Virus genome (UHGV): UHGV-0135878
Direction: 5' to 3' (one strand)
Source of the DNA: a virus
Length of the DNA: 39,269 nt
The position numbers were made by a program, and so were the translations under genes. Every line of letters begins with the position of its first letter. The stretch's first letter is position 1. Below are positions 660 to 38,335 of this stretch, in pieces. The notes beneath the pieces are model-generated. The model had not been told where the DNA came from. It did not search any database and worked only from the letters and a program-made list of their open reading frames with translations.

Positions 660-682
660 CGCTGCCGCCACTTTGTCGCCAT
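660..682. repeat. Candidate attL core (cgctgccgccaCtttgtcgccat)
   Basis: 22/23 identical to 36415-36437; abuts the stop codon of the 682-1437 gene; exact crossover not determinable from sequence alone. Confidence 0.45.
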
Positions 683-1437
683 TAAGAAGGTGATGACTGG
701 TCTTTGATAGCTAGAAGTCCCCATGAGAAAACTTCTTTGGCATCGCTTATTAAACCATCCTCTATAAATTGCTGTGTCTCAGCCCATTCCATATCACTGA
801 CATAGTGTACTAGCGTATTTGTCTGGATTGGGATTTCTTCAAATTGCTCGATTCGACGTTTGAAACTACATTCAGGATCTGAACAACGGCATGTGCGTCT
901 TATATCATCTACCCTACAGAGTAAAAGGGAGTAGGGGGTCTCAAGTGGTGCACAGTAGTCAACCCGATAGTTATGAGATCGTGTTGGCTGGATGTTATGA
1001 AGGGGATCTAAAAGCACAATATTAAAAATTTGGTTCTCATCCCAAAAGCCAACAACTCTACCAAGGGCAGTAGATATCTGAAATTGTAGTAAGGGGTATT
1101 CTTCGTCATTTTCAAGGTAATCAGTGTCAATCCATGTCAACTGGCTACGTTGTACGGGTATATTTCTTTGTTCCCAGTTTATTGAATGATAGCGCCATGC
1201 CTCTCTATCGGCCCCACTGGTAATAAAGCCTTTGACATCTTTTTGAGAAAGCTCAGATAATTTTCCAATTAGTGAAACAAACCAGCCTGAATTGGTACGG
1301 TCTAACCCAAAATTATCAATTTGACGCCAATAACGAAAAGAAAATGCCCACTTTTTTTCGGGTGCAGAGGGCGTTTTTGGGGTCTGTGCCGCTGTTGGTT
1401 GATTTGCCCCTAATGAAGGGCGGTAGGCGTTCACCAT
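682..1437 (-). CDS. Hypothetical 251-aa protein, downstream partner of the Panacea-domain gene (candidate toxin/effector)
   Basis: ATG at 1437 lies 5 nt after the stop of the upstream gene (operon arrangement); AT-rich; no motif recognised; Cys cluster CRCSDPEC; stop codon overlaps attL repeat. Confidence 0.6.
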   Translation of the reverse strand: MVNAYRPSLGANQPTAAQTPKTPSAPEKKWAFSFRYWRQIDNFGLDRTNSGWFVSLIGKLSELSQKDVKGFITSGADREAWRYHSINWEQRNIPVQRSQLTWIDTDYLENDEEYPLLQFQISTALGRVVGFWDENQIFNIVLLDPLHNIQPTRSHNYRVDYCAPLETPYSLLLCRVDDIRRTCRCSDPECSFKRRIEQFEEIPIQTNTLVHYVSDMEWAETQQFIEDGLISDAKEVFSWGLLAIKDQSSPS

Positions 1438-2075: not shown

Positions 2076-3095
2076 TTACGTAGTTACCATAGTTGCTAAT
2101 GGATTAAAACGTAGCGCTGTTTCTAGGTGGTCAGGAGCCAGATGAGCATAGCGCATGGTCATTTTTATGTCGTGATGCCCAAGGATTTTCTGCAGAGCCA
2201 GGATGTTTCCGCCGGACATCATAAAGTGTGCTGCGAACGTATGACGCAGAACGTGTGTTAGCTGACCGCGTGGAAGCACAATAGAAGTCTTATCCATTAC
2301 AGATAAAAACTGGAAGTAGCAGTCAGTGAAGAAATTGAAACCGTCTAGGGCAATGATTTCCTCATACAGCTCTTTGCTAATCGGAATGCTTCGGTTCTTT
2401 TTGCCTTTGGTCCTGACGAATGTGATCCGGTATTTCGTAACCTGAGAACGGGTTAGGTTCACAGCTTCGCGCCAGCGTGCTCCGGTGCTCAGACAGATTT
2501 TAACGACAAGAGCGAGCAGGGGACTTTGGCGGTTGCAGTCGTACAATAGCTCGGTAATTTGTTCATGCGTCAGCCAGGCCATCTCCTTTTCTGCGATGGT
2601 GAATTTTCGCATGTTCTCCAGTGGGTTCGGATACGACCATTCGCCCAGGCGGGATAGTTCGCTAAAAACACTACTTAGATAGCTTTGCTCCAGGTTAATG
2701 GTGACCGGGCTTGCTCCTTTCTTCCATTTCTCGCTGAAGTAGATCTCGCCTGTCAGGCGTTTATCTCGATAGTGGGCAAACATTTTAGAGGTGAGATCAG
2801 TTGCAAGGGGATTGCCCAGAGCGTCAACCATCAGCAGCAATTTGTCATAGACATGCTGCCCAGCAGTCAGTGATTTACCATGTAGTTTGAACCATAGCTC
2901 AACCACGTCTTTTAGTGTTCGACGATCCACTGATTCACCTAGCCAGGGCTTTGCTTCGGTTTCTTCCATCGTGTGACGCTCAAAAGCCAGTGCTTCGCCT
3001 TTGGTGGCGAATTGTTTACGCACACGACGCCCACTACGTCCGGCGGGGTAACATTCGCAAAGCCATTTTCCTGTGGTGAGTTTTCGTACAGCCAT
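2076..3095 (-). CDS. int: Tyrosine integrase (P2 Int family)
   Basis: ATG at 3095 chosen over track start 3251 (P2-like N-terminus MAVRKLTTGKW); C-terminal LRHTFA...MRYAHL catalytic R-H-R-Y signature. Confidence 0.9.
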   Translation of the reverse strand: MAVRKLTTGKWLCECYPAGRSGRRVRKQFATKGEALAFERHTMEETEAKPWLGESVDRRTLKDVVELWFKLHGKSLTAGQHVYDKLLLMVDALGNPLATDLTSKMFAHYRDKRLTGEIYFSEKWKKGASPVTINLEQSYLSSVFSELSRLGEWSYPNPLENMRKFTIAEKEMAWLTHEQITELLYDCNRQSPLLALVVKICLSTGARWREAVNLTRSQVTKYRITFVRTKGKKNRSIPISKELYEEIIALDGFNFFTDCYFQFLSVMDKTSIVLPRGQLTHVLRHTFAAHFMMSGGNILALQKILGHHDIKMTMRYAHLAPDHLETALRFNPLATMVTT

Positions 3096-3283
3096 AAAAA
3101 ATGCCCTCCAATAGAGAGCATTTTTACTGTATGTATAACCAGTGTCAATATATGAAATCCTGCGACCATACATCTCACTGAAGCCATAATGAAGTAGGCT
3201 ATTCTTTTTGCTATGTGAGCATGTAACTTTTGCGGTTAACCTGTGGCTCATTTTTATTTTAGGCGCAGATATAAAAGCAAAAG

Positions 3284-5779: not shown

Positions 5780-6013
5780 ATGCGTAATATTGAAACCCTC
5801 ACGACTAAAACCGGACCGGATGACGCAGGGCTTAATATTTTACTGACAGAGGCTCGTCTGGAAGAACGCCGGGCAAGGGCTGAAGCAATGGCTGCCCGCC
5901 TTGATAGTCTTGCGTGTCATATCACATCCCGCCAGCTAAACCACGTCGAAGCGGCAGAACTGCTGCGTGTGACCGCTGAAGCAATCCAGAACGAAGCGCA
6001 GGAGATCCACTAA
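5780..6013 (+). CDS. Hypothetical early protein (77 aa)
   Basis: ATG at 5780 with RBS CAGGAGA (track start 5774 is TTG). Confidence 0.5.
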   Translation: MRNIETLTTKTGPDDAGLNILLTEARLEERRARAEAMAARLDSLACHITSRQLNHVEAAELLRVTAEAIQNEAQEIH

Positions 6014-6240
6014 TGGCTGATGCAATGGATCTCGTACAGCAGCGCGTTGAAGAAGAACGCCAGCGCCATATCCGTGCTGCCCGTGCCAAAACACCGGGCG
6101 TGTCTCGCGTGCTTTGTATTGAATGTGAAGCGCCAATTCCGCCAGCACGCCGCCGCGCCATTCCTGGAGTGCAGCTTTGCATTACCTGCCAGGAAATCGC
6201 AGAGCTGAAAGGCAAACATTACAACGGAGGTGCTGTATGA
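6013..6240 (+). CDS. TraR/DksA-family C4 zinc-finger protein
   Basis: 75 aa; CxxC...CxxC (CIECEAP...CITCQ) typical of phage TraR-like proteins; start overlaps previous stop. Confidence 0.7.
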   Translation: MADAMDLVQQRVEEERQRHIRAARAKTPGVSRVLCIECEAPIPPARRRAIPGVQLCITCQEIAELKGKHYNGGAV

Positions 6241-7094
6241 GCACCATCCTGAAATGGGCGGGTAATAAAACCGCCATTATGTCCGAACTGAAAAAATACC
6301 TTCCTGCTGGCCCGCGACTGGTTGAACCTTTCGCGGGTTCTTGTGCTGTGATGATGGCGACGGATTACCCCAGCTATCTGGTTGCGGATATTAATCCTGA
6401 TTTAATCAACCTCTATAAAAAGATTGCCGCTGATTGCGAAGCGTTTATATCTCGTGCCAGAGTTTTATTTGAGGAAGCAAACAGTGAGCTGGCTTATTAC
6501 AACATAAGACAGGAGTTTAATTACTCAACTGAAATTACTGATTTCATGAAGGCGATATATTTCCTGTATCTCAATCGTCACGGTTACCGTGGTTTATGTC
6601 GCTATAACAAGAGCGGGCATTTCAACATTCCCTACGGTAATTATAAAAATCCGTATTTCCCTGAAAAAGAAATTCGCGCATTTGCAGAGAAAGCCCCGCG
6701 GGCAACGTTTATCTGCGCCAGCTTTGATGAAACGCTGGCGATGTTGAAGGCGGGGGATGTGGTGTATTGCGATCCGCCGTATGACGGTACGTTTTCCGGC
6801 TATCACACTGATGGTTTCACTGAAGATGACCAGTATCACCTGGCATCCGTTCTTGAACATCGGTCGTCAGAAGGTCATCCGGTCATTGTTTCTAACAGTG
6901 ACACATCCCTGATTCGTTCGCTGTATCGCAATTTCACTCACCACTACATCAAGGCAAAACGCAGCATCGGCGTGTCGGCTGGCGAGAGTAAATCTGCAAC
7001 AGAAATCATTGCTGTTTCCGGGGCGCGCTGCTGGGTGGGATTTGATCCTTCGCGTGGCGTGGATAGTTCTGCTGTGTACGAGGTGCGTGTATGA
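6237..7094 (+). CDS. DNA adenine methyltransferase (Dam family)
   Basis: 285 aa from ATG at 6237; DPPY catalytic motif ([10 protein letters not shown]) and N-terminal FAGSCAV AdoMet motif. Confidence 0.85.
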
Positions 7095-9505
7095 GTCATG
7101 CCGATATGAGCGACTCTAGCGGCTTTAACGAGGCCGCTGCAGCATTTTCATGGAACGGCCCGAAAAAGGCCATAAACCCTTATCTGGACCCGGCGGAAGT
7201 TGCGCCGGTTTCTGCGCTTTCAAACCTGATCACTCTGTATGCTGCCGATAACGAGCAGGAACAGCTGCGCCGCGAGGAATTGAGTGAACAGGTCTGGGAG
7301 CGTTATTTCTTTAATGAATCCCGTGATCCTGTCCAGCGCGAAATGGAGCAGGATAAGCTCATTAGTCGGGCAAAGCTGGCGCATGAGCAGCAGCGTTTTA
7401 ACCCGGACATGGTCATTCTGGCGGACGTCAGCGCCCAGCCCACCCACATCAGCAAGCCGCTGATGCAACGTATCGAATACTTCAGCAGCCTGGGCAGGCC
7501 AAAGGCTTATTCCCGCTATTTGCGTGAGACGATTAAGCCATGTCTGGAGCGACTGGATTGTGTACGCGACAGTCAGCTATCTACTTCTTTCCGTTTTATG
7601 GCAAGCCATCAAGGGCTGGAGGGCCTGCTGATCCTGCCTGAAATGAGTCAGGATCAGGTGAAACGCCTGTCCACCCTGGTAGCTGCGCATATGAGCATGT
7701 GTCTTGAGGCCGCTTGTGGTGATTTGTATACCAACGATGACGTAAAGCCAGAAGAAATCCGCAAGACATGGGAAAAGGTGGCAGCGGAAACCCTGCGTCT
7801 GGATGTTATCCCGCCTGCGTTTGAGAAACTTCGTCGGAAAAGAAACCGCCGCAAACCTGTGCCCTATGAACTCATACCGGGTTCGCTGGCACGTATGCTT
7901 TGCGCCGACTGGTGGTATCGAAAATTGTGGAAGATGCGTTGCGAATGGCGGGAAGAGCAGTTGCGTGCTGTCTGTCTGGTCAGCAAAAAAGCATCTCCCT
8001 ATGTCAGCTATGAAGCCGTGATGCATAAACGTGAGCAGCGCCGCAAGTCGCTGGAGTTTTTCCGTTCTCATGAACTGGTGAACGAAGACGGAGACACGCT
8101 GGATATGGAAGATGTGGTAAACGCCAGCAGCAGCAACCCGGCACATCGCCGCAATGAGATGATGGCCTGCGTTAAAGGTCTGGAGCTTATCGCGGAAATG
8201 CGCGGTGACTGCGCCGTTTTCTACACCATCACATGTCCGTCACGTTTCCATTCCACGCTCAATAACGGCAGGCCCAACCCGACCTGGACAAATGCGACGG
8301 TAAGACAAAGCAGCGATTATCTGGTCGGCATGTTTGCTGCATTTCGTAAGGCGATGCACAAAACCGGGTTGCGCTGGTATGGCGTACGGGTGGCTGAGCC
8401 GCACCATGACGGTACTGTGCACTGGCATCTCATGTGTTTCATGCGCAAAAAAGACCGCCGCGCCATTACTGCATTGTTGCGTAAGTTTGCCATCCGTGAA
8501 GACCGCGAGGAGCTGGGCAATAACACGGGCCCACGCTTTAAGTCTGAGCTGATAAACCCACGCAAAGGAACGCCGACAAGCTACATCGCAAAATACATCA
8601 GTAAGAACATTGACGGGCGTGGTCTGGCTGGCGAGATCAGCAAGGAAACGGGTAAATCCCTGCGTGATAACGCCGAATACGTTAATGCCTGGGCGTCTCT
8701 GCATCGTGTTCAGCAGTTCCGCTTCTTTGGTATTCCGGGGCGCCAGGCTTACCGTGAACTGCGATTGCTGGCTGGTCAGGCGGCAAGACAACAGGGTGAC
8801 AAAAAAGCAGGTGCGCCGGTACTGGATGATCCGCGTCTTGATGCCATCCTGGCTGCTGCTGATGCTGGTTGTTTTGCCACCTACATCATGAAGCAGGGCG
8901 GCGTACTGGTTCCCCGCAAATATCACCTTATCAGAACAGCTTATGAAATTAACGAAGAGCCGACTGCCTATGGCGATCACGGTATTCGTATTTATGGCAT
9001 CTGGTCACCCATTTCAGAGGGCAAGATCTGCACTCATGCAGTGAAGTGGAAAATGGTTCGTAAGGCCGTTGACGTTCAGGAGGCGGTAGCCGACCAGGGC
9101 GCTTGCGCCCCTTGGACTCGTGGCAATAACTGTCCCCTTGCTGAAAATTTGTACCAACAAGGGAAAGACAAATCAGCTGATGGGGGCTCCAGAACGGACA
9201 TTACCCGCATGGATGACAAGGAATTGCACGATTACCTGCACAGTATGAGCAAAAAAGATCGCCGGGAGCTGGCAGCAAGGTTGCGCTTGGTGAAACCGAA
9301 ACGGCGTAAAGACTACAAACAGCGAATTACAGATCATCAGCATCAGCAGCTCGTCTATGAACTGAAGTCCAGAGGATTTGATGGCAGCGAGAAAGAAGTC
9401 GATTTGCTCCTTCGCGGTGGCAGTATTCCGTCAGGAGCAGGCTTGCGTATCTTCTATCGGAACCAGCGTTTGCGGGAAGATGATAAGTGGCGGAACCTGT
9501 ATTAA
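7091..9505 (+). CDS. A: Replication initiation endonuclease (P2 gpA family, rolling-circle HUH nuclease)
   Basis: 804 aa; HUH-type motif (TVHWHLMCF) and tyrosine motif (YIAKYISK); position after early genes. Confidence 0.85.
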
Positions 9506-9599
9506 TTACGCGGGTTAACAATTCGTGCTCTTAATAATACCAGGCATATCAGGCTGATGAACGTAAAAAAACGTTTTACATCAGTAAGATTATTATATA

Positions 9600-9615
9600 C
9601 TGTAAATATAAACAG
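9600..9615 (+). promoter_or_regulatory. LexA (SOS) box CTGTAAATATAAACAG
   Basis: With flanks taCTGTAAATATAAACAGtg, 17/20 match to the CTGT-N8-ACAG consensus; overlaps a likely -10 about 45 nt upstream of the 9659 start codon. Confidence 0.6.
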
Positions 9616-9658
9616 TGGTTATGTATACAGCATTTCTTGTGGTGTCATAGGAGGAAAG

Positions 9659-9847
9659 ATGCAGGACTATTTTTTGGAGTCTTTGAAGCTCCAGCGCATT
9701 GATTTTTTTCTTAAGCTTGTAGCGGCTAGTGAGTGTAGTGATGAAGAGAAGGGGCTGGCTTTGCAGTGGGTTTCTGAACTAACAGATGAACTCATGGCAA
9801 AAATCAGAACCCACGAATACAACCGCTCAATGGATGTCATCAGTTGA
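9659..9847 (+). CDS. Small SOS-controlled protein (62 aa), possible N-terminal part of a Tum-like antirepressor
   Basis: ATG at 9659 with strong RBS AGGAGGA just downstream of the LexA box; track start 9557 reads through the operator. Confidence 0.45.
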   Translation: MQDYFLESLKLQRIDFFLKLVAASECSDEEKGLALQWVSELTDELMAKIRTHEYNRSMDVIS

Positions 9848-9857
9848 GGTGACTTTT

Positions 9858-10091
9858 ATGCGCATTGAAATAATGATCGATAAAGAGCAGAAGATTAGCC
9901 AGTCTATCCTGGACGCCCTTGAATCCGAGCTTTACCGCAATCTGCGCCCCCTGTATCCCAAAACGGTAATTCGTATCCGCAAAGGTAGCTCTAACGGTGT
10001 GGAACTGACCGGACTGCAACTGGACGAAGAAAGAAAACAAGTGATGAAAATTATGCAGAAGGTGTGGGAAGACGACAGCTGGCTGCATTAA
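9858..10091 (+). CDS. DinI-family protein
   Basis: 77 aa, MRIEIMIDKE...DALESEL...WEDDSWLH resembles DinI; RBS GAGGTGA; ATG at 9858. Confidence 0.7.
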   Translation: MRIEIMIDKEQKISQSILDALESELYRNLRPLYPKTVIRIRKGSSNGVELTGLQLDEERKQVMKIMQKVWEDDSWLH

Positions 10092-10093
10092 GA

Positions 10094-10136
10094 AACGTTG
10101 CTGGCGTCTGAACTTGCTTCTGACGTCAGCAACGTT
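10094..10136. terminator. Stem-loop between convergent genes (15-bp stem with one G-T pair, 13-nt loop)
   Basis: aacgttgctggcgtc ... gacgtcagcaacgtt immediately after the DinI-like stop; no clean T-run, so terminator function is inferred. Confidence 0.4.
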
Positions 10137-10357
10137 GAACAACTAGTTTAGTGGGGCATTAGTCATGGGGTAAAATACAGTAACCATTATTTTCACTTCC
10201 GCTCAGATTTAACCGAACGTTAGTTTTGCTACGTATGATGGGCTGCAAATTACCTTTTGGGATTTGTGATAGATACGAAAATCCTATTAGATGCTTGTTA
10301 GACCGGAAGCGCCACTTCGAACGAAAAGTAATGGCCACTTATGCCGGTTTAAAAGCC

Positions 10358-10888
10358 TTAACCTTGTATAGTTATTTGAATATTTTCTTCATTGACACCA
10401 AAGTATAGGGCTAGCCCTGCTTTTGCCTCCTGAAGTGTTAACGGCTTAACTACATTTTCTTCTTCTTCTTCGTACTCATCACCCGCTTGATCGACAATCG
10501 AATTAGTCGGGGTTAATTTTGGAAGAGCTTTAAATTCCAACTTGTCAGCCTCAATGCCAATGTCTTTGAGGTTGCGATAAGAAACGGGATTCCGATTGCC
10601 ATCCCATTGTCCTGGGATGTCAATTTCAGCATAAGAATTGATGTTTATGATCCAGCGTTTAGGGTTTTCTGGAGCCCTGCTTACTCCCGAGATTCGACCG
10701 ATCATAAAAGCATGATGATGTTTTGCTTCTTGTGATCCCCAGTCCTTTCTCGAATTTTGTACACAAACTAAATATTCGTGCTTAGCTGCATGGCTGGCGT
10801 CAAGTCTCCATGCTTGGCTTCCCCCTGTGTTCAAAATCTCTGTTAAACCACGAGCAGTAAGTACAGTAATACAGTTGGTAGTAGCCAT
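10358..10888 (-). CDS. Hypothetical 176-aa protein at the P2 old/tin position (accessory gene)
   Basis: ATG at 10888; transcribed opposite to the early operon, just left of the cos-like site; acidic EYEEEEE stretch; no motif recognised. Confidence 0.6.
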   Translation of the reverse strand: MATTNCITVLTARGLTEILNTGGSQAWRLDASHAAKHEYLVCVQNSRKDWGSQEAKHHHAFMIGRISGVSRAPENPKRWIININSYAEIDIPGQWDGNRNPVSYRNLKDIGIEADKLEFKALPKLTPTNSIVDQAGDEYEEEEENVVKPLTLQEAKAGLALYFGVNEENIQITIQG

Positions 10889-11205
10889 TGAATTGTGACT
10901 CCGTCTTTTTTAGAGAAATACTATTGATGAATGTAGTTTACGTATTTTTTTATTGAGTAGTCAAGTTAGTATTCTGCTCGTTATTGGCTGTTTTTTGAGT
11001 GTTGTGAGTTAGTACTTTGTGTAGTACCTCTTGGTTTATGAGGGTTAAATCTAAGTTATGACAAAGGGAGGCAGGGGGAACGCGCAGCGCAAGGTGTACA
11101 GGAGGCCATAAGGACTCACTTGAAGTAAGAAAAGATCGATAAAGCAACAATGCATGTCTATGCCGCATGAATTCGCATGATCGTTTGAGGATCGTTTTAG
11201 CTGAG

Positions 11206-11233
11206 GCCCGCTAGGAATGGCGGGCTTTTGTTT
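11206..11233 (+). terminator. Rho-independent-terminator-like hairpin (gcccgc-8nt-gcgggc then TTTTGTTT)
   Basis: 6-bp GC stem and T-run on the + strand about 45 nt before the cos-like motif; no upstream + strand ORF. Confidence 0.35.
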
Positions 11234-11274
11234 ATGTCATGCAAGTGCATGAAAACCACTACATAAAGCGGGCA

Positions 11275-11293
11275 GGCGTGGCGGGGATACGAG
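11275..11293. other. Candidate cos (cohesive end) site, ggcgtggcggggatacgag
   Basis: First 13 nt match the GGCG(A/T)GGCGGGGA cohesive-end motif I remember for P2/186; lies in a GC-rich island within AT-rich DNA between the old/tin position and Q. Confidence 0.45.
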
Positions 11294-11658
11294 CGCGCGC
11301 ACCTTCTAATAATTACAAAGTCATTGAGATATGCAGGGGATATTCTATATTTCATTTAATCGATATACCCAACCGAGCTACTAGATTGATTGTGCAAAGT
11401 TAATCAACTAACTATTAGGTGAAAATATATTCCCAATAGTTATCATTCAGATTTATTTAATTCCTCGTTCGTATCATTTTTTATTTACCAATAAGCTGTG
11501 TGATTTTTATGTTAAATTAACGGCAATAGCATAATATGTTGTGAAAATGTGATGAGATCTACTTGATATTATTTTTATAATGGTGTTAATTGTTAGTCAG
11601 CTAAACGGTGTTACATTTTATTTTCAACGAAATTAAGTTTTTGTCATGGAGAGGCTTT

Positions 11659-12480
11659 ATGAAGGTTAGTTTTGATGTTGTTATTAAAAGTGGTGCTTAT
11701 GATGTTGATATGGATTACGCGCTTAAAACATTAGCTGGTACATCGAATGTAGTTTGCCTTTTGGCAGAAGCGATACTTCGTGGAAGAATTATTGAACGGC
11801 GTACCCATGCAAATGATATCAGAGCAAAGCTTAAACACAGTTTTCCGGGTTCTTATGGTCAAAAATTTGACATCGAGATAAATGACTCGACACTGATTTC
11901 TCGTTTGAATTCTATGGGACGTAGTGTTTTCTCTGAAGTAATGAGTTACTATATTTGTGAAGCGCTATATGTTGAGCATAATGGTTTGACAGATGCAGCA
12001 CAGAAAATCATTGATAGTTTAGTTGCAATAGAGGATGAGCTTACAAAGCGAATTCGTTCCCCACTAAAAGATATGCATAAAGTCACTACAATGAATGGTT
12101 ATAATGTTGAGTTATCTTATCGAAAACCTGGATCACCAGAAAACATTATAACGTTGACACCAGAAACTGAGATTAATATTTCAGATACTGAAATACTACA
12201 GGTTTCCCATGATATATCTGTAATCATAACTCGTTTTAATTCAATGACAGGAAATGGTCGACTTATACTTGAAGGGTATGAAGAACATGGCACTGTAGCA
12301 TTTGGATTTTATGATAATTTAAGATATGTAACAGAAAACCATAAAAGACAAATCACTCAAAACTTGCATCACAATAATGGCCTTCCATCAGATAGATGGC
12401 AATATATGAATTTAACTGTAAGTGATATGGTTCTTCCTAGTGGGGATGTTATTAAATATCTAATTCGTAATATACCTTGA
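11659..12480 (+). CDS. Hypothetical 273-aa soluble protein, first gene of accessory operon
   Basis: ATG at 11659 with RBS GGAGAGG (track start 11608 is upstream in-frame); strongly AT-rich; no motif recognised. Confidence 0.65.
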   Translation: MKVSFDVVIKSGAYDVDMDYALKTLAGTSNVVCLLAEAILRGRIIERRTHANDIRAKLKHSFPGSYGQKFDIEINDSTLISRLNSMGRSVFSEVMSYYICEALYVEHNGLTDAAQKIIDSLVAIEDELTKRIRSPLKDMHKVTTMNGYNVELSYRKPGSPENIITLTPETEINISDTEILQVSHDISVIITRFNSMTGNGRLILEGYEEHGTVAFGFYDNLRYVTENHKRQITQNLHHNNGLPSDRWQYMNLTVSDMVLPSGDVIKYLIRNIP

Positions 12481-12490
12481 TAGAGTTATT

Positions 12491-13186
12491 ATGAAAATTC
12501 ACTCTATTAAAATCTTTGCTGCATTAGTAATTATAATTACGTGGTTGAGTTATTTTGCAAAGTTTGGTGATTGGTTTAACTTCTCGAGTGATACGGCTGT
12601 TTGGGGGCAGTTTGGGGATTTTTTAGGAGGGGTGATTAATCCACTGCTTACATTTATATCTGTTGTTTACTTGATTAACTCTGTAAATCTTCAGCGAGAG
12701 GCGAACGCTAGCCTGATTGCGCTTGAAGAGTTTAAGAAAACTGAGACCAAATTTTATAACATGCTTGAGTCACAACGAAGTGGCTTCGAAAGCTTTAAAA
12801 TTGTAGATAGTGTGGATGGGAAACCTTTAGTTATCAAGGACGGTGACGCGGTTACATATATTGAGGATGTTGTTGTAGAAATGGTAATCCAAGGAAGTAC
12901 AAAAGGAGAAATCTCAAATAAAATAGGTGGAATGGATAAAGCGGATAATATATTTAGTATAGTGAGGCGCTTTCATAATATTATTAAGTTGATTAAAAGG
13001 GAAATTCCGGAAAACTTAAGAAGTGAATATTATGATAGTTTAGTTAATATGACTGAGTATAAGCAAATATGTCTTATATTAATATCAATGGAGCTTTTTG
13101 ATTGGCCTATTTTAAGTAGCATTGATGAAAGTGGTGTGTTTAATATTGAGGCATTAATGGAATATAGAAAAGCATTTAGACCATAA
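12491..13186 (+). CDS. Hypothetical 231-aa membrane protein (two N-terminal TM helices plus ~170-aa soluble domain)
   Basis: ATG 10 nt after upstream stop; hydrophobic segments at about residues 7-26 and 41-62; AT-rich. Confidence 0.65.
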   Translation: MKIHSIKIFAALVIIITWLSYFAKFGDWFNFSSDTAVWGQFGDFLGGVINPLLTFISVVYLINSVNLQREANASLIALEEFKKTETKFYNMLESQRSGFESFKIVDSVDGKPLVIKDGDAVTYIEDVVVEMVIQGSTKGEISNKIGGMDKADNIFSIVRRFHNIIKLIKREIPENLRSEYYDSLVNMTEYKQICLILISMELFDWPILSSIDESGVFNIEALMEYRKAFRP

Positions 13187-13192
13187 CTGAAT

Positions 13193-13220
13193 AAGAAACA
13201 ATGCTTAGGCATTGTTTCTT
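13193..13220. terminator. Perfect 12-bp stem / 4-nt loop hairpin between the accessory operon and portal gene 3' end
   Basis: aagaaacaatgc ttag gcattgtttctt followed by gtgtttat; sits between convergent stops at 13186 and 13231. Confidence 0.5.
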
Positions 13221-21142: not shown

Positions 21143-21536
21143 AGCAGTGCCTTATGTCCATAATAACCCGGACAAACTGCATCTGTTTGTGGATAACGGT
21201 TCGCTGGTTGCCACGGGGGCCAGCTCCATGTCATGGGAGTACCGTTACACCCTGAACGTGGTGATTGAGGATTTCAGCGGCGACCAGAATCTGCTGATGG
21301 CCCCGGTTTTGCTGTGGCTGCGGGATAACCAGCCCGATGCCATCAATAACCCGGCGTTACGGGAAAAGGTATTTACCTTTGAGGTGGATATTTTACGCAA
21401 CGATGTCTGTGATATCAGCCTTAACCTGCAACTGACGGAGCGTGTGCTGGTCAGCACTGACGGCAGTGTGTCGAGTGTTGAAGCTGTAGCGGAACCCGAT
21501 GAACCTGAAGAAATGTGGACGGTGAAACGTGGCTGA
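21105..21536 (+). CDS. R: Tail completion protein (P2 gpR family)
   Basis: GTG at 21105 preceded by RBS CAGGAGCG (track start 21084 is TTG); position as P2 R. Confidence 0.8.
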   Translation: MNKPQSLRHALNKAVPYVHNNPDKLHLFVDNGSLVATGASSMSWEYRYTLNVVIEDFSGDQNLLMAPVLLWLRDNQPDAINNPALREKVFTFEVDILRNDVCDISLNLQLTERVLVSTDGSVSSVEAVAEPDEPEEMWTVKRG

Positions 21537-21975
21537 ACTGCAGAAGGTGGACGACTGGCTGAGTGCTTTGCTGGCGAATCTGGAACCAGCCGCAAGAAGC
21601 CGCATGATGCGCCAGCTGGCGCAGGAACTGCGCCGGACACAGCAGCAGAATATCAGGATGCAGCGCAACCCTGATGGCAGCAGCTATGAACCTCGACGGG
21701 TAACAGCACGCAGTAAAAAGGGGTGCATCAAACGTCAGATGTTTGCAAAGCTGCGCACCACAAAATACCTGAAAACTGCCGCCAACGCCGACTCTGTCAG
21801 TGTGCAGTTTGAAGATAAGGTGCAGCGCATTGCCCGCGTTCACCATTATGGCCTGCGTGATCGAGTTAGATATAAGGGGCCAGAAATACGTTATACAGAG
21901 CGACGTCTATTAGGCTTCTGCACTGAGAGTAACGATGCTATTAGTATAATTTTACTTCGTTATCTAACTAGTTGA
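21529..21975 (+). CDS. S: Tail completion protein (P2 gpS family)
   Basis: 148 aa from GTG at 21529; last ~100 nt become abruptly AT-rich at the boundary with the SIR2 cargo gene. Confidence 0.8.
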   Translation: MAELQKVDDWLSALLANLEPAARSRMMRQLAQELRRTQQQNIRMQRNPDGSSYEPRRVTARSKKGCIKRQMFAKLRTTKYLKTAANADSVSVQFEDKVQRIARVHHYGLRDRVRYKGPEIRYTERRLLGFCTESNDAISIILLRYLTS

Positions 21976-22047
21976 TATGTCTTGTTTTTTGTGGGTTTTT
22001 ATAACATCATATTGGCTCTGTTATAAATAGTATGGAGAGTTTGATTG

Positions 22048-23253
22048 ATGAAAAAAAATAACGATATCAATAAACAAGTAAAATCAGAAACAGAAAATAA
22101 TTCATCTGCAAATATGAATGGAAGTGGCTCGGATGAAATCCTTTCTAAGAGCACCTCTGGTACGGTGGTATGGGGAGATAACAGTTTTGGAAGTATTTCT
22201 AAATATATTAATGAGGTACTCGGTAAGAATTTATATTTAGATATAATTAAATCTCTTGATGCTAAGTTGAAAGCACCAGTTCAAGCTAATAGAACTACTA
22301 TATTAAAGAACCTGAAGGGTAATTTCAAAGAGGAAAATCTTGTGCTTGTATTAGGCGCTGGAATTTCTTTGGATTATAAAATACCTACATGGGATGAATT
22401 ATTAAGGAGGTTGCTTGCTAGAGCGTTACAAGATACTAATGAAAATCAGCAAGTTGTTGCGACATTATTTAATCAGGTGTTCGGGCCAAATGCTTTGATT
22501 GCGGCTAGATATTTAAAGTTACATTTTGAAAGTGCTAACACTCCTCTTGAGAAAGAAATTCAGAAAGTGTTATATCAATTTTATGATAGCACCGAGAGTC
22601 AAACGCTTAAGGCGATAAAGAAATTATGTATTTCTGCGGGGAAGGCTCCGGGGTTAGATTCTGTCATAACATATAATTATGACGACATACTAGAGCAAAC
22701 ATTACAAAACGCAGATGTTGGTATTAAATTTAAGGTTATATATAAAACTGGGCAGCATGCAAAAAAAGATGAGTTGCCAATATATCATGTTCATGGATAT
22801 CTTCCCTTAAATGGTAAGATTGATAGTGATGACAGCCTAGTTTTATCGGATGAAAGTTATCATCGGCAATATATGGATTTATATCACTGGAGTAATATGG
22901 TTCAGTTGAATAAATTCAAAGACAATAATTGTTTGTTTATAGGACATTCCTTTACTGATCCAAATTTAAGACGTCTGCTTGATGCTGCTAAAAAGTTAAG
23001 GGGTAATGATTCTAAACCTCATTACTTAATAAAATGTCGACACTCAAAAGATGATGTTATAAATAAAATTCTAAAAGGTTCACGTCAAGATTTGAATGAC
23101 GGGCTAGTCGACGATATAGACAATGTTGCCCGTTCTTTATTAGATACTGTACATAAATTTGAAGAAATTGATGCTAACTCTTTTGGTGTTAATGTTATAT
23201 GGATTGATAATTTTACTGAAATAGGCCCCATAGTAACTGATTTAACTCAATAA
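22048..23253 (+). CDS. SIR2-like (ThsA-type) NAD-binding domain protein, standalone, 401 aa
   Basis: ATG at 22048 with RBS GGAGAG; SIR2 motifs VLVLGAGISLDYKIPTWDELL, ITYNYDD, IYHVHGY, CLFIGHSFTDPNL; very AT-rich; inserted between S and V. Confidence 0.75.
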   Translation: MKKNNDINKQVKSETENNSSANMNGSGSDEILSKSTSGTVVWGDNSFGSISKYINEVLGKNLYLDIIKSLDAKLKAPVQANRTTILKNLKGNFKEENLVLVLGAGISLDYKIPTWDELLRRLLARALQDTNENQQVVATLFNQVFGPNALIAARYLKLHFESANTPLEKEIQKVLYQFYDSTESQTLKAIKKLCISAGKAPGLDSVITYNYDDILEQTLQNADVGIKFKVIYKTGQHAKKDELPIYHVHGYLPLNGKIDSDDSLVLSDESYHRQYMDLYHWSNMVQLNKFKDNNCLFIGHSFTDPNLRRLLDAAKKLRGNDSKPHYLIKCRHSKDDVINKILKGSRQDLNDGLVDDIDNVARSLLDTVHKFEEIDANSFGVNVIWIDNFTEIGPIVTDLTQ

Positions 23254-23266
23254 ATCTTGTTTTAGT

Positions 23267-23284
23267 TGTGCCGGCAATGGCACA
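23267..23284. promoter_or_regulatory. TGT-N12-ACA dyad, candidate Ogr-type late-activator site for the V operon
   Basis: tgtgccggcaatggcaca inside an 8-bp inverted repeat (23265-23286), about 56 nt upstream of V ATG. Confidence 0.35.
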
Positions 23285-23331
23285 ACTGTCTTAAGTTATT
23301 TTCCTAATAATATTTTTGTAAGTTGTGTGCC

Positions 23332-23910
23332 ATGAACGCACAACTTACAGAAATCATGCGCCTTATCACCAACCTGATCCGCACTGGTGTAGTCACCGAA
23401 GTGGACCGGGAAAACTGGCTTTGTCGGGTGAAAACGGGCGACCTTGAAACCAACTGGATTAACTGGCTGACGCTGCGCGCGGGTAATGCCCGCACATGGT
23501 GGAAACCATCGGAAGGTGAGCAGGTGGTGCTGCTGAGTCTGGGCGGCAATCTGGAGACCGCCTTTGCGCTGCCCGCTGTCTATTCGAATCAGTTCGCACC
23601 ACCGTCGACGTCGGCGGACGCCTGCGTGACAGAACATCCTGACGGTGGCTGGTTTGAATACGAACCCGCCACCGGGCGCTGGTATGTCAGGGGCATCAAA
23701 TCAATGGTCATTGAGGCCGCTGACAAAATCACCATGAAAACCAGTGAGTTTGTACTGGAGGCTGACCGCACGCGCATTAACAGTGAAGTGGTGATCAATG
23801 GTGGCGTTACCCAGGGCGGCGGTGCAATGAGTTCTAACGGAATTGTGGTTGATGCACATCAGCATACTGGCGTCCTGAAAGGCGGCGACACAACCGGAGG
23901 CCCGGTATGA
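23332..23910 (+). CDS. V: Baseplate spike/assembly protein (P2 gpV family)
   Basis: ATG at 23332 (track start 23323 is TTG); position and size as P2 V. Confidence 0.85.
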   Translation: MNAQLTEIMRLITNLIRTGVVTEVDRENWLCRVKTGDLETNWINWLTLRAGNARTWWKPSEGEQVVLLSLGGNLETAFALPAVYSNQFAPPSTSADACVTEHPDGGWFEYEPATGRWYVRGIKSMVIEAADKITMKTSEFVLEADRTRINSEVVINGGVTQGGGAMSSNGIVVDAHQHTGVLKGGDTTGGPV

Positions 23911-27390: not shown

Positions 27391-27995
27391 TGGCGAAAGC
27401 AAAATTAAACAGTGCGTTTATTGCCACCGTGGCAGGAGAAATCACTGTGTACAACTACCGGGGCGACACCCGCGAATACATATCCTCATCGGTTGAGTAT
27501 CTGCCTGTGGGGGTGGGTATTCCTGCCAATTCCTGTACCGATGCGCCCGGCACACATAAGGCTGGTTATGCAATCTGCCGTTCTGCAGATTTTAACTCAT
27601 GGGAATATGTGTCAGACCATCGCGGTGAAATTGTCTATGGCATCGAAACGGGGGAATCAAAAGAAATTACTGTGCCGGGGGATTACCCTGAAAATACGAC
27701 CACTTTTGCCCCATTAACGCCATACGATAAATGGGATGGTGAGAAATGGGTAACAGATACCGAGGCACAGCATAGCGCCGCAGTAGATGCAGCAGAAGTA
27801 CAGCGCCAGTCTCTGATTGATGCTGCTATGGCTTCCATCAGTCTGATTCAGCTGAAATTGCAGGCCGGACGTAAACTGACGCAGGCAGAAACAACCCGCC
27901 TTAACGCTGTGCTGGATTACATTGACGCGGTGACGGCAATAGATACCAGCACCGCGCCTGATATTATTTGGCCTGTATTCCCTGAGACTGATTAA
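27390..27995 (+). CDS. G: Tail fibre assembly chaperone (P2 gpG family)
   Basis: 201 aa, TAATG overlap with H; C-terminal DTSTAPDIIWP motif typical of Tfa proteins. Confidence 0.85.
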   Translation: MAKAKLNSAFIATVAGEITVYNYRGDTREYISSSVEYLPVGVGIPANSCTDAPGTHKAGYAICRSADFNSWEYVSDHRGEIVYGIETGESKEITVPGDYPENTTTFAPLTPYDKWDGEKWVTDTEAQHSAAVDAAEVQRQSLIDAAMASISLIQLKLQAGRKLTQAETTRLNAVLDYIDAVTAIDTSTAPDIIWPVFPETD

Positions 27996-28224
27996 CCTCA
28001 ATCAGTATTGGTTCGCCTTTCTCATTAATTGTTAGCTCCATGCCCTGAGGAATTTCTGTCATAGTAAAAAACCAGTTGTCCTCCGGTAATTCAATAGCCC
28101 CGGTCACGTCATGAAGACCGGGGATTACTTCAGTCAAAGTAACTGGATTAAACAGGCGCACAATAAACCCTCCATGAAAAAGCATTTGATGATGGTCTGC
28201 CGTCGTACATCTGGCAGCGGGCAT
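27964..28224 (-). CDS. Small ORF in reverse cassette, possible alternative fibre chaperone (start uncertain; GTG at 28161 has RBS GGAGGG)
   Basis: Follows the alternative fibre cassette on the minus strand; no Tfa signature recognised; overlaps G tail-to-tail by 32 nt. Confidence 0.3.
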   Translation of the reverse strand: MPAARCTTADHHQMLFHGGFIVRLFNPVTLTEVIPGLHDVTGAIELPEDNWFFTMTEIPQGMELTINEKGEPILIEVNQSQGIQAK

Positions 28225-28492
28225 AAAAGCCGGTATTTGTTACCTGATCATCCACGATCATTGAAACGTGAACATTATTAGGTGTGCTCTCGTAATCCGT
28301 TCTTATTCTTTCTGCGATACTGATAAAACGTGAAAGTTTAGGCAGTGCAATTGGGTAAACGACTTTAGCCAGTCCATTATCATTAGATCCACCGGTTCCA
28401 AATACTTCTATTGCACCATCTGACCAGCGTACCCATGCACCATTGGCATTAGCTCCTCGCTGAATGACATATCTGGCTTCTCCCAAACCAAC
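28148..28492 (-). CDS. Promoterless alternative tail-fibre C-terminal cassette (Hv'), expressed only after inversion
   Basis: Minus-strand frame continues from shared VGLGE codons at the right gix site into ~110 codons ending at the 28148 stop; the track Met start at 28531 is outside the segment. Confidence 0.6.
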   Translation of the reverse strand, partial: VGLGEARYVIQRGANANGAWVRWSDGAIEVFGTGGSNDNGLAKVVYPIALPKLSRFISIAERIRTDYESTPNNVHVSMIVDDQVTNTGFYARCQMYDGRPSSNAFSWRVYCAPV

Positions 28493-28503
28493 GTTTATGA
28501 AAA
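28478..28503. other. Invertase crossover site (gix/hix-like, right): TTCTCCCAAACC AA CGTTTATGAAAA
   Basis: Left half-site is the exact reverse complement of the right half of the 26792-26817 site; 55 nt upstream of the invertase ATG. Confidence 0.6.
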
Positions 28504-28558
28504 TGCAGAGATAATGGCTAACTGGCATCATCCCCGGTTTTTATTCAGGGGGATGCTC

Positions 28559-29125
28559 ATGCTTATTGGCTATGTACGCGTGTCAACAAATGACCAGAAC
28601 ACCGATTTGCAACGTAATGCACTGAACTGCGCGGGATGTGAGCGGATTTTTGAGGATAAAATCAGTGGCACTAAGTCCGACAGACCAGGGTTGAAAAAAC
28701 TGCTCAGGACACTATCGGCAGGAGACACGCTGGTTGTCTGGAAGCTGGACAGGTTGGGGCGCAGTATGCGGCATCTTGTTACGCTGATAGAAGAGTTGCG
28801 TCAGCGAGGCGTGAATTTCCGAAGCCTGACTGACAGTATTGATACCAGCACCCCAATGGGCCGTTTCTTTTTTCATGTCATGGGTGCCCTGGCTGAAATG
28901 GAACGCGAACTGATAGTTGAACGTACCAGGGCAGGGCTGGCTGCAGCTCGTGCCAAAGGCAGAGTAGGTGGACGCCGTCCTAAGTTGACCACCGAACAGT
29001 GGGCACAGATTGGGCGTTTACTCGAGGCCGGAGAATCAAGACAGCGTATTGCACTGATTTTTGATGTGGGCGTTTCTACCATTTATAGAAAATTTCCGGC
29101 GAATGAGAACAATGAATCGCCCTGA
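28559..29125 (+). CDS. Serine DNA invertase (Gin/Hin/Pin/Cin family)
   Basis: 189 aa from ATG at 28559; N-terminus MLIGYVRVSTNDQ with catalytic Ser, C-terminal HTH. Confidence 0.9.
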   Translation: MLIGYVRVSTNDQNTDLQRNALNCAGCERIFEDKISGTKSDRPGLKKLLRTLSAGDTLVVWKLDRLGRSMRHLVTLIEELRQRGVNFRSLTDSIDTSTPMGRFFFHVMGALAEMERELIVERTRAGLAAARAKGRVGGRRPKLTTEQWAQIGRLLEAGESRQRIALIFDVGVSTIYRKFPANENNESP

Positions 29126-36437: not shown

Positions 36438-36500
36438 CGTTAAAAAACAGTGCTTCTAACATCATGATCTTAAACACCATAAATTTCAGGCAACAAAAAA

Positions 36501-36537
36501 CCCATCAACCTTGAACCGAAATGGCGGGGTTGATGGG
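36501..36537 (-). terminator. Rho-independent terminator downstream of ybjL (minus strand)
   Basis: Perfect 10-bp stem cccatcaacc/ggttgatggg with 17-nt loop; on the minus strand it is followed by TTTTTT. Confidence 0.5.
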
Positions 36538-36649
36538 CTCCACAAAATGGGGACATCAAAGAAAAGCAGTGGCACTAATTAAGACTGATGCCCTGCGGAA
36601 AAGTTCTGCGGTTGTGCAAAAAAATTTCATTTTCAGGGCAACTTCAGTT

Positions 36650-38335
36650 TTATCCTAATCCTGGCCATACCATGACGATGATTGTCCCTGCCAGCGTCAG
36701 CAGGACGTTGGCGATTGCGTAGGTGCCCGCATAGCCCAGCGCAGGGATGTTACTGCGAGCTGTATCACTGATGATCTCCATTGCCGGCGCGCAGGTGCGT
36801 GCGCCCATCATTGCGCCGAACAACAGTGCGCGGTTCATTCGCAATACATAAGCACCGAACAAGAAACAGATAACCACGGGCACAAGACTGACAATTAATC
36901 CGGCAATCAACATCTGACCGCCAATCGCGCCCAGGCCGTTATTAATACCGCTACCGGCGCTCAGACCAACGCCTGCCATAAACACCATCAAGCCGAACTC
37001 TTTCACCATGCTTAATGCACCTTGCGGAATGTAACCGAAGGTCGGGTGGTTAGCACGCATAAAGCCCAGCATAATTCCGGCGAATAACAACCCGGCAGCG
37101 TTCCCCATGCCGAAACTGAATGTGCTGAACTGGAAGGTGATCATCCCGATCATCAGCCCAATAACAAAGAAGGCGCAAAATGCCAGCAGGTCAGTGACCT
37201 GGCTGTGAATCGAGATAAAGCCGATGCGATCGGCGATGGTTTTTACGCGACGGGCATCACCGCTGACTTGTAAAACGTCACCTTTGTTAAGCACGACGTT
37301 GTCATCTATCGGCATCTCAATCTGGCTACGAATGACGCGGTTAAGGAAGCAACCGTGATCGGTCAACTTCAGTTGTGCGAGACGTTTACCTACAGCGTTA
37401 TGGTTTTTAACGACCACTTCTTCAGTGACGATACGCATGTCGAGAAGGTCACGATCGAAAACTTCTTTACCGTTACGGAAGCTGGGATCGAGTCGGGCAT
37501 GGGCGTCGGGATAGCCTACCAACGCTATTTCATCGCCCATTTGTAGCACGGCATCACCGTCTGGATTTGCCAGAATCCCGTTACGTCGAATACGTTCAAT
37601 GTAGCAGCCGGTTTGTCGATAAATACCCAGTTCACGCAGATTTTTGCCGTCGGTCCAGGCCACCAGCTCCGGGCCGACGCGATAGGCGCGGATCACCGGT
37701 AAATAAACCTTACGGTTGGCATCAGTGTCCAGGCCACGTTCGCGGGCGATTTGCTGGGCGCTGGTCTGTAAGTCCTGATGCTGCAATTTCGGCAAGTAAC
37801 GCGCACCAACAATCAAACTCACCAGACCGATTAAATAGGTTAAGGCATACCCGAGGCTCAGATTATCCAGTGCCAGTGAGAGCTGCCTGCTTTCCATGCC
37901 GAAATGACGCAGTGTATCGCCAGCACCGACCAGAACCGGTGTCGACGTCATAGAGCCTGCTAACATACCGGCCGTCAGGCCAATATCCCAGCCAAACAGC
38001 TTACCTAACCCTAAGGCGATCACCAGCGCACTGCCAACCATCACCAGTGCTAACATTAGGTAATTTTTCCCATCGCGAAAAAAAATGGAAAAAAAGTTCG
38101 GTCCGGCTTCGACCCCGACGCAGAAAATAAACAGCATAAAGCCAAGATTAAGCGCATCGGTGTTAATGCTGAAATGTTGTTGGCCTAATAACAGCGATAC
38201 GACTAAAACGCCAATGGAATTACCCAGTTGGATCGAACCAAGTCGTAACTTTCCGAGACATAGCCCAAGCGCGAGGACCACAAATAATAACAGAATGTAA
38301 TTCCCATTTAACAATTCGGCGACGTTTATATTCAC
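36650..38335 (-). CDS. ybjL: Putative AAE-family transporter YbjL
   Basis: 561-aa polytopic membrane protein with central soluble domains; recognised as E. coli YbjL. Confidence 0.9.

Follow-up and report, generated by a model that had tools for sequence, protein, structure and literature searches.

The DNA analysed here is UHGV virus genome UHGV-0135878, a stretch of 39,269 nucleotides (nt; hereafter the window), which is a complete P2-like prophage lying between rcdA (1-537) and rybB/ybjL. Between its tail genes S and V it carries a gene for a 401-amino-acid (aa) SIR2 protein. We consider this protein probably to be a prophage-borne abortive-infection NADase, an immune-type SIR2 effector that is self-contained. 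This reading is built on the SIR2 fold with its intact catalytic residues, the evolutionary constraint on the core, the status of the gene as cargo of a temperate phage, and the defence neighbourhoods of its relatives. We infer both the hydrolysis of NAD+ (nicotinamide adenine dinucleotide) and the defence phenotype from sequence. The features of the gene are as follows.

22048..23253, plus strand: SIR2_2 / SIRim-type gene, 401 aa and stop codon
22048..22287, plus strand: codons 1-80, hypervariable low-complexity tail, predicted to be disordered
22288..23250, plus strand: SIR2 catalytic core, aa 81-401
22354-22362, plus strand: GAG loop
22675-22677, plus strand: codon of catalytic Asn210
22792-22794, plus strand: codon of catalytic His249
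22942-22965, plus strand: GxSFxDPN motif

The core belongs to the immune branch of SIR2 proteins

The initial annotation had likened the protein to the SIR2 half of Thoeris ThsA, and the profile searches it proposed bore this out. The Pfam family SIR2_2 (PF13289) matched aa 205-336 with 77.5 bits (E=1.4e-21), well above its curated gathering score of 24.5. The best PADLOC matches were the SIR2 portions of LmuA, ThsA, PDC-S25 and Dsr1. The LmuA profile (8e-22) was covered only at positions 3-236 of 433, which is its SIR2 part, and the ThsA (ThsA1) profile (9.7e-20) aligned aa 79-399 with positions 3-274 of 478. This match ends with the SIR2 half, in agreement with the earlier claim that a SLOG domain is lacking. 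The match to the NCBIfam Dsr1 model was partial, covering aa 95-327 only and scoring 32 bits against a cut-off of 1400. A profile search of the PDB returned ThsA (2e-10) and KomC (7.6e-10), and Foldseek returned BcThsA (1.7e-13).

All of the SIR2 signatures named in the initial annotation are present: GAG(IS) at aa 103-107, NYDD at 210-213, HVHG at 247-250 and FIGHSFTDPN at 297-306. Their key residues (G103-A104-G105, N210, D212, D213, H247, H249, G250, G299, S301 and D304-P305-N306) are invariant in an alignment of 31 members, as is a C-terminal F371-E372...D375 motif. In the profile alignment, N210 corresponds to ThsA N112, the residue changed to Ala in PDB 8BTO, and H249 to the catalytic His of the ThsA KMHG motif.

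The AlphaFold (AF2) model of the protein has a mean predicted local distance difference test score (pLDDT) of 72 and a predicted template modelling score (pTM) of 0.71, and is confident for aa 80-401. In a fold ranking of this model, the highest scores were those of SeThsA (24.6), KomC (22.4), the Avs5 SIR2 domain (19.1) and FAM118B (18.0), followed by the SIR2 proteins associated with prokaryotic Argonaute (pAgo; 17.9) and HerA (about 15), and by canonical sirtuins and SirTM (9.7-13.3). The order given by Foldseek was consistent with this ranking. No CxxC zinc motif was found in the protein, which has three cysteines in total. The fold therefore resembles that of antiphage SIR2 proteins more closely than that of canonical sirtuins and lacks the zinc module, and these two observations place the protein in the immune SIR2_2 or "SIRim" branch described previously (bioRxiv 10.1101/2024.09.18.613514; PMC12700824). 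As modelled, the protein is a SIR2 domain with no further folded part. Finally, the ratio of nonsynonymous to synonymous substitution (dN/dS, omega) of the core was 0.03 between the Raoultella and Enterobacter alleles, which shows strong purifying selection on the core.

The N-terminal tail is predicted to be disordered and evolves rapidly

The initial annotation had assigned about 95 aa to an additional N-terminal region. Such a region exists, but it is shorter, about 80 aa, with the conserved core beginning at about aa 78-85, and it appears to be a disordered tail rather than an added domain. The structure prediction that had been proposed for it gave a pLDDT below 50 for aa 1-77; given this low pLDDT and the predicted disorder, a folded N-terminal domain was rejected. 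The tail is rich in Ser, Asn, Gly and Lys. A search with aa 1-85 against 1.84 billion cluster representatives gave 12 matches, mostly to several short stretches within longer proteins, and we read these as compositional rather than as homologues.

We compared the P2-borne alleles of the E. coli window type, the E. coli E41 type, Raoultella and Enterobacter. Identity among them was about 25% in the tail versus about 79% in the core, and nonsynonymous divergence (dN) was 0.82-0.89 in the tail versus 0.15 in the core. Synonymous sites were saturated in most pairs; in the one pair in which they were not, omega was 0.45 in the tail and 0.03 in the core, and the tail values that could be measured ranged from 0.3 to 0.5. 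The tail stays in frame, keeps a similar length and evolves about fivefold faster than the core. This pattern fits a recognition or regulatory tail shaped by an arms race just as well as it fits a linker under little constraint.

The gene is accessory cargo at the S-V site of P2-like prophages

The gene lies in the late region of the prophage, with the following features at its borders.

21529..21975, plus strand: gene S (P2 tail completion / virion morphogenesis), left flank; Pfam Phage_tail_S 4e-38
21865..21975, plus strand: AT-rich, replaced 3' end of S, forming the recombination junction on the left side of the cargo
21923..21950, plus strand: sigma-70-like site CTGAGA-16-TATAAT, 10 of 12 matches, the only such site upstream of the SIR2 gene
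22034..22039, plus strand: Shine-Dalgarno sequence GGAGAG, 8 nt 5' of the ATG, by direct sequence reading
23266..23285, plus strand: TTGT-N12-ACAA dyad TTGTGCCGGCAATGGCACAA, right edge of the cargo site
23332..23910, plus strand: gene V (P2 baseplate spike), right flank; Pfam Phage_base_V 1.2e-17 and GpV Apex motif

The account of the locus in the initial annotation held at every point. The open reading frame (ORF) spans 22045/22048-23253 on the plus strand, and its ATG at 22048 gives the 401 aa that had been claimed between S and V, now identified by their Phage_tail_S and Phage_base_V matches. It has its own ribosome-binding site, and its extreme AT-richness is reflected in a GC content of 32.8% versus 54.9% in the remaining late region. 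The shift in composition was said to begin inside the end of S, and the final 110 nt of S indeed have 36% GC compared with 56% elsewhere in that gene. The late-promoter motif that had been placed directly after the gene (core TGT-N12-ACA) is found at 23267-23284, 13 nt past the stop codon.

In an alignment with an empty S-V locus, similarity drops from about 21865 and is gone by about 21913. This decay indicates that the last 20-35 codons of S travel with the cargo, and the divergent S end is common to other alleles carrying the SIR2 gene. On the right side, the ATG of V (23332) lines up with the start of this gene in other S-V loci. In line with established P2 biology, the dyad at 23266-23285 is of the type to which P2 Ogr binds at late promoters, and it matches the operator for Ogr/delta in the late promoter of V. 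The dyad and the V start were kept in all S-V variants examined, whether empty or holding TIR, DUF2971, DUF6216 or SIR2 genes, and the cargo is therefore placed exactly between the S stop codon and the V late promoter. As RNA, the dyad is predicted to form an 11-bp hairpin (-18.9 kcal/mol, z = -2.7) without a downstream U-tract. This hairpin past the stop codon was considered as a terminator and rejected, because it is the late-promoter dyad and has no U-tract.

DNA from S to V matched 1053 of 5426 complete E. coli genomes, only 8 of which have the SIR2 insert. To describe the occupancy of the site, we took an evenly spaced sample of the E. coli flank matches, of which 50 loci had both flanks. 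S and V were adjacent, the site being empty, in 32 of these 50 loci. The remainder, about one third of the sample, hold a single unrelated gene. Several hypothetical proteins are among this alternative cargo, together with the following genes (L numbers denote the loci compared).

L018:892-1692: TIR-domain protein at S-V, 266 aa, weak PADLOC matches to PDC-S66 and spbK
L019:785-1654, opposite strand: DUF2971 protein at S-V, PADLOC candidate PDC-S31 (2e-24)
L020:718-1524, opposite strand: DUF6216 protein at S-V, also in E. coli B derivatives

The SIR2 gene thus has the position, the deviating composition and the presence/absence pattern among syntenic prophages of cargo at the ORF30 site. P2 ORF30 occupies this same S-V position, and the site has already been seen as variable in phage R18C (PMC6823313). 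The site itself is known, and the SIR2 gene is an accessory cargo gene, or 'moron', within it. Prophage-borne defence cargo and hotspots among P2 tail genes have been described, and the published surveys of P2 defence focus on the A-Q (old/tin) and fun/Z loci (PMC9122126, PMC9519451, PMC13586616). A report of SIR2 cargo at the S-V site was not found in the searchable literature.

Relatives of the gene behave as a self-contained mobile unit

At least 1392 homologues were found at E<=0.001 among 8000 candidates scored. Most are 370-420 aa long, and their sources name them just as SIR2 family proteins. The initial annotation had called a SIR2 effector without a recognisable sensor unusual; this holds in comparison with the characterised systems, but not in nature. 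The closest relatives (67-78% identity) are from Enterobacter, Citrobacter and Raoultella and, where examined, occupy the same S-V position in P2-like prophages or are intact in prophage remnants. Full length is kept at S-V in the E. coli, Raoultella, Enterobacter and Citrobacter alleles, which are 67-82% identical, and every P2-borne allele is found immediately 3' of S and in the same orientation. The gene is also intact in decayed remnants (E. coli LR-45, locus L102, and Enterobacter) that lack capsid, lysis and most tail genes. The cargo at A-Q differs from carrier to carrier: the window has three unassigned ORFs there, E. coli E41 encodes a DUF4145 protein and Enterobacter an FRG protein, whereas in LR-45 the cargo is deleted.

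In Vibrio parahaemolyticus, a 51%-identical homologue lies in a prophage-like region. In V. parahaemolyticus locus L004, the SIR2 homologue is the sole gene between attC repeats at 5823-5964 and 7243-7363, within a chromosomal integron array of at least 19 attC sites. A Shewanella homologue lies in a small chromosomal islet, and the genes upstream of the Vibrio and Shewanella homologues are mutually unrelated. Scanning 185,579 species genomes added another 80 loci. An all-against-all BLAST of the ORFs within 3 kb on either side, covering about 85 non-redundant loci, revealed no recurrent neighbour; the largest cluster of neighbours spanned 6 loci, among which the positions varied. The gene was more AT-rich than its surroundings at each of the 19 loci checked.

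The initial annotation had found no TIR-domain partner nearby, and we likewise obtained nothing at E<=10 when a hidden Markov model (HMM) of the TIR domains of fused relatives was compared with the six-frame translation of the window. HerA, SMC, pAgo and SLOG had no match in the other accessory ORFs of the window (Pfam, PADLOC). A partner in these other accessory regions was rejected, since what matched there (a DinI-like protein, a Panacea antitoxin-like protein, an orphan Dam methylase and an invertase) is not relevant to the SIR2 gene. The search for a partner gene that had been proposed for the rest of the genome was carried out over the window and the loci of relatives, and returned none in either. 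Taken together, the integron cassette, the lack of a shared neighbour and the lack of a partner match in the window indicate that the gene is a self-contained mobile unit.

The neighbours of short-tailed members include type I/II restriction-modification, MADS, Mokosh MkoC, DRT8, PD-T7-1, PD-T7-5, PbeA and UzuA genes, which gives qualitative support to residence in defence islands. A 12-fold enrichment of defence systems near SIRim-clade proteins has been reported (bioRxiv 10.1101/2024.09.18.613514).

More distant members, which share 31-40% core identity and the same C-terminal motif, have folded N-terminal modules at the place of the E. coli tail. One is a TIR_2 domain (Pfam 8.7e-29), for example in Pseudomonas, Paenibacillus, Duganella and Vibrio. 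IF2_N is fused to the core at three loci (9e-9; L026, L032, L042), and another set has a coiled-coil module. Further modules are a PD-(D/E)xK nuclease-like domain of about 170 aa, judged by eye from its D...E/D-x-K motifs, and, in Firmicutes, one of about 285 aa that at its start matches a profile for a type IV restriction enzyme (2.3e-7). These fusions, which occur in other phyla, suggest a modular design around one SIR2 core. The remaining loci with fused cores are as follows.

L055, L058, L067, L068, L073, L085, L093: TIR-fused
L075, L076, L089, L092: Mrr_N-like module
L064, L071, L083, L088, L100: further fused cores

Two of these arrangements merit separate mention. The fusion of IF2_N with SIR2 is an odd pairing without obvious rationale. 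In an Oscillospiraceae metagenome-assembled genome (L090:1212-2613), a TIR ORF (1212-1679) and a SIR2 ORF (1699-2613) lie 20 nt apart, and represent either a natural split of a TIR-SIR2 fusion or an assembly frameshift.

Comparison with characterised SIR2 systems

Membership of Thoeris, DSR, Lamassu, SIR2-HerA or Kongming was considered and rejected, since the match is confined to the SIR2 domain and the partners or domains that define these systems are lacking. The gene fails the defining features of all of Thoeris, DSR1/2, SIR2-HerA, Lamassu, Kongming, SPARSA and Avs5. The protein is nearest in the fold ranking to Thoeris ThsA (BcThsA, 6LHX/8BTO; SeThsA, 7UXT), with which the SIR2 half is shared. 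However, ThsA has a C-terminal SLOG/STALD domain for the cyclic ADP-ribose signal, whereas the window protein ends with its SIR2 domain and carries a disordered N-terminal tail instead. In addition, Thoeris has an adjacent ThsB (TIR) gene, while the neighbours of the SIR2 gene are S and V. Kongming KomC (8ZSF, 9XVC) is alike in fold only; komA and komB are absent here, and no partner is conserved in the approximately 85 loci. The PDB titles of the KomC structures describe dITP-bound KomBC complexes.

DSR1/DSR2, Avs5, SIR2-HerA, SPARSA and Lamassu-SIR2 have the NAD+-depleting SIR2_2 effector domain in common with the window protein and differ from it in what accompanies this domain. DSR1/DSR2 are proteins of about 1000-1250 aa with a large C-terminal HEAT-like sensor, compared with the 401 aa of the window protein. 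SIR2-HerA (Nezha) / PD-T7-2 has an adjacent HerA-type ATPase, and none adjoins the window gene. Lamassu LmuA has a C-terminal domain and works with LmuB (SMC-like) and LmuC; the window protein has the SIR2 part only and no SMC-like neighbours. Neither the APAZ domain and pAgo partner of SPARSA nor the STAND NTPase and sensor that Avs5 carries in the same protein was detected here by Pfam or PADLOC. Vertebrate FAM118B/FAM118A (SIRanc, 9R0P) show a likeness in fold at a sequence identity of only about 21%, and form a paralogue pair with signalling in the Toll-like receptor (TLR) pathway, unlike the single E. coli gene. A characterised stand-alone SIR2 defence gene was not found in the searchable literature.

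Proposed mechanism

We propose that the protein would be made in the lysogen and held inactive. Upon an infection cue, the SIR2 cores would assemble into an active oligomer or filament, in which Asn210 and His249 would hydrolyse NAD+. The infected cell would then stall before the invading phage finishes its cycle, and the lysogen population and the prophage would be protected. The fast-evolving disordered tail (aa 1-80) would be the most likely regulatory or recognition element, gating assembly. We infer three of these components, namely activation by oligomerisation, the role of the tail and expression in the lysogen. Filament formation is reported to activate SIR2 effectors (PMC12700824, PMC11897194, bioRxiv 10.64898/2026.03.01.708072). 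Given that ThsA, KomC, Avs5 and FAM118B are all filament-activated, self-assembly is the most economical assumption for the window protein, which may thus become active by assembling with itself, the tail gating that step.

A more specific version of this proposal is rather doubtful, although we put it forward tentatively: sensor and effector would be combined in one polypeptide, with the tail as a bait or brake that is bound, modified or cleaved by a phage factor, freeing the core to polymerise into an NADase filament. If this is true, the protein would correspond, in bacteria, to the vertebrate FAM118 sirtuins, which form filaments by themselves, and a TIR, IF2_N, Mrr/nuclease-like or disordered tail would be interchangeable triggers on a common SIR2 engine.

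Several observations weigh against a self-contained abortive-infection NADase. First, a tblastn search of 50,697 phage genomes with the SIR2 protein found no relative, and one of the 8 E. coli copies is split by an IS5-type insertion sequence (IS). Second, no sensor domain or trigger can be named for the window protein, and the searchable literature holds no experiments on it or its close family. Third, the tail omega lies below 1 (0.3-0.5), which fits relaxed constraint as well as diversifying selection. Finally, neither an intrinsic terminator between S and the SIR2 gene nor a conserved sigma-70-like promoter upstream of it was found in three alleles. If the gene has its own promoter, the site at 21923..21950 is a weak candidate; it is not position-conserved in the E41 or Raoultella alleles, and promoter-like sites upstream of the gene are no more frequent than in shuffled sequence, the region of this site having fewer of them. 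With no terminator and no conserved promoter, the gene may be expressed mainly with the late genes and not in the lysogen.

Alternative explanations

We think it unlikely that the protein is a partner-dependent effector. It would then form the output of a split system and be activated by a small molecule or protein that another gene of the host or prophage provides. Its structural neighbours ThsA and KomC do need partners (ThsB; KomA and KomB), its more distant relatives are TIR-fused or TIR-adjacent, and TIR proteins occur at the same S-V site in other prophages. However, a SLOG or other ligand-binding domain that could receive such a signal is absent, the ThsA profile matching by its SIR2 half only. 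The approximately 85 loci without a conserved neighbour and the single-gene integron cassette also argue for autonomy, as do the failure of TIR, HerA, SMC and pAgo to match in the other accessory genes of the window and the A-Q cargo, which differs or is absent in other carriers.

The expression signals raise another explanation, which we regard as improbable. By read-through of the late operon, the gene would act in P2 lytic growth or upon late-promoter transactivation instead of as a standing defence; it might then remodel the NAD+ metabolism of the host, keep out competitors (for example P4 satellites and other P2-like phages) or act against host immunity. The orientation and position of all P2-borne alleles directly behind S, the lack of a terminator-like site after S and of a conserved promoter of its own, and the Ogr-type operator for V directly 3' of the gene all fit such a late function. 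Yet other S-V cargo lies on the opposite strand and is necessarily expressed on its own, the gene is intact in remnants incapable of lytic growth, and its homologues reside in integron cassettes and chromosomal defence islands without a phage context.

That the protein is a regulatory sirtuin, a deacylase or ADP-ribosyltransferase acting on a host or phage protein rather than a bulk NAD+ hydrolase, is very unlikely in light of the fold ranking and the absent zinc module, which weaken this idea. RefSeq labels the gene as a SIR2 family protein and names one allele 'SIR2 family NAD-dependent protein deacylase'. SIR2 chemistry permits such reactions, and the NAD+ processing by FAM118 is only modest (PMC12700824).

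It is scarcely credible that the gene is a decaying passenger, a horizontally acquired remnant without current function: it is rare (8/5426 E. coli genomes), its low GC could cause silencing, and the EC05 copy of E. coli (L103:2149-4554; 99.8% DNA identity) is interrupted by the IS5-like ISKpn26 in a heavily deleted prophage, but the core omega is 0.03, the catalytic residues are invariant, and alleles of 67-82% identity are full-length at the same site in four genera.

Other features of the prophage

The general layout of the window is that of P2. The early part contains a CI-type repressor gene and the following features.

2076-3251, minus strand: integrase
7091-9505: replication gene A
about 9520-13200: AT-rich accessory region between A and Q (old/tin hotspot)

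The late genes follow in the order Q, P, O, N, M, L, X, holin, lysozyme, LysB/C, R and S, and, after the S-V cargo, V, W, J, I, H, G, the tail-fibre invertase and FI through D. The A-Q region holds a DinI-like gene (9786-10091) and three ORFs, at 10358-10888 (minus strand), 11608-12480 (plus strand) and 12491-13186 (plus strand), without a Pfam or PADLOC match; these three may form a defence or accessory system that has not been described. The early region also encodes an orphan Dam-type N6-adenine methyltransferase (6177-7094; PADLOC oMTase 9.5e-110), which could act against restriction.

Between rcdA and the integrase gene, a minus-strand gene (1443-1910) encodes a protein with a Panacea/SocA-like antitoxin domain (Pfam 2e-19), adjoined by a 251-aa ORF without an assigned family (682-1437, minus strand). 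Lying where the prophage has its int-att edge, the two genes (682-1910) resemble a toxin-antitoxin pair of the PanA type. The tail-fibre inversion module (27964-29125) consists of a Hin/Cin-type invertase gene (28514-29125; Resolvase and HTH_7) and inverted tail-fibre/assembly fragments on the minus strand beside it (27964-28224 and 28148-28531), suggesting a switchable host range. At the right end of the prophage lies the small RNA RybB (36492-36570, minus strand; Rfam 105 bits), which was the sole match in the window in an Rfam scan, with none in or near the SIR2 gene. The ORF adjoining it (36650-38335, minus strand) is taken as ybjL on the basis of synteny, and ybjL also borders the SIR2-carrying prophages of E. 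coli strains E41 and LR-45, as well as the remnant in Enterobacter.

Significance

The superfamily, the variable S-V site and the RefSeq SIR2 label are known, and in principle the finding is not surprising. To our knowledge, every characterised SIR2 defence system couples its NADase to a separate sensor domain or a partner gene. The family of the window gene is widespread, also in E. coli prophages, without an evident sensor domain or partner gene. The window gene itself offers a clear example, simple to test, of a SIR2 effector without an evident sensor. In addition, the S-V (ORF30) site of P2-like phages is worth searching for candidate defence systems made of one gene, and the TIR, DUF2971/PDC-S31 and DUF6216 genes found at it are examples of such candidates.

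At 1.2 kb the gene is easily cloned, and its natural alleles differ mainly in the tail. These natural tail-swap alleles and the domain-fused relatives suggest where the control of a SIR2 effector lies. If the gene encodes a self-contained abortive-infection NADase, as we consider probable, the mechanism by which it is switched would show how small such an NADase can be and whether SIR2 self-assembly suffices, and would bear on the control of the stand-alone vertebrate FAM118 sirtuins.

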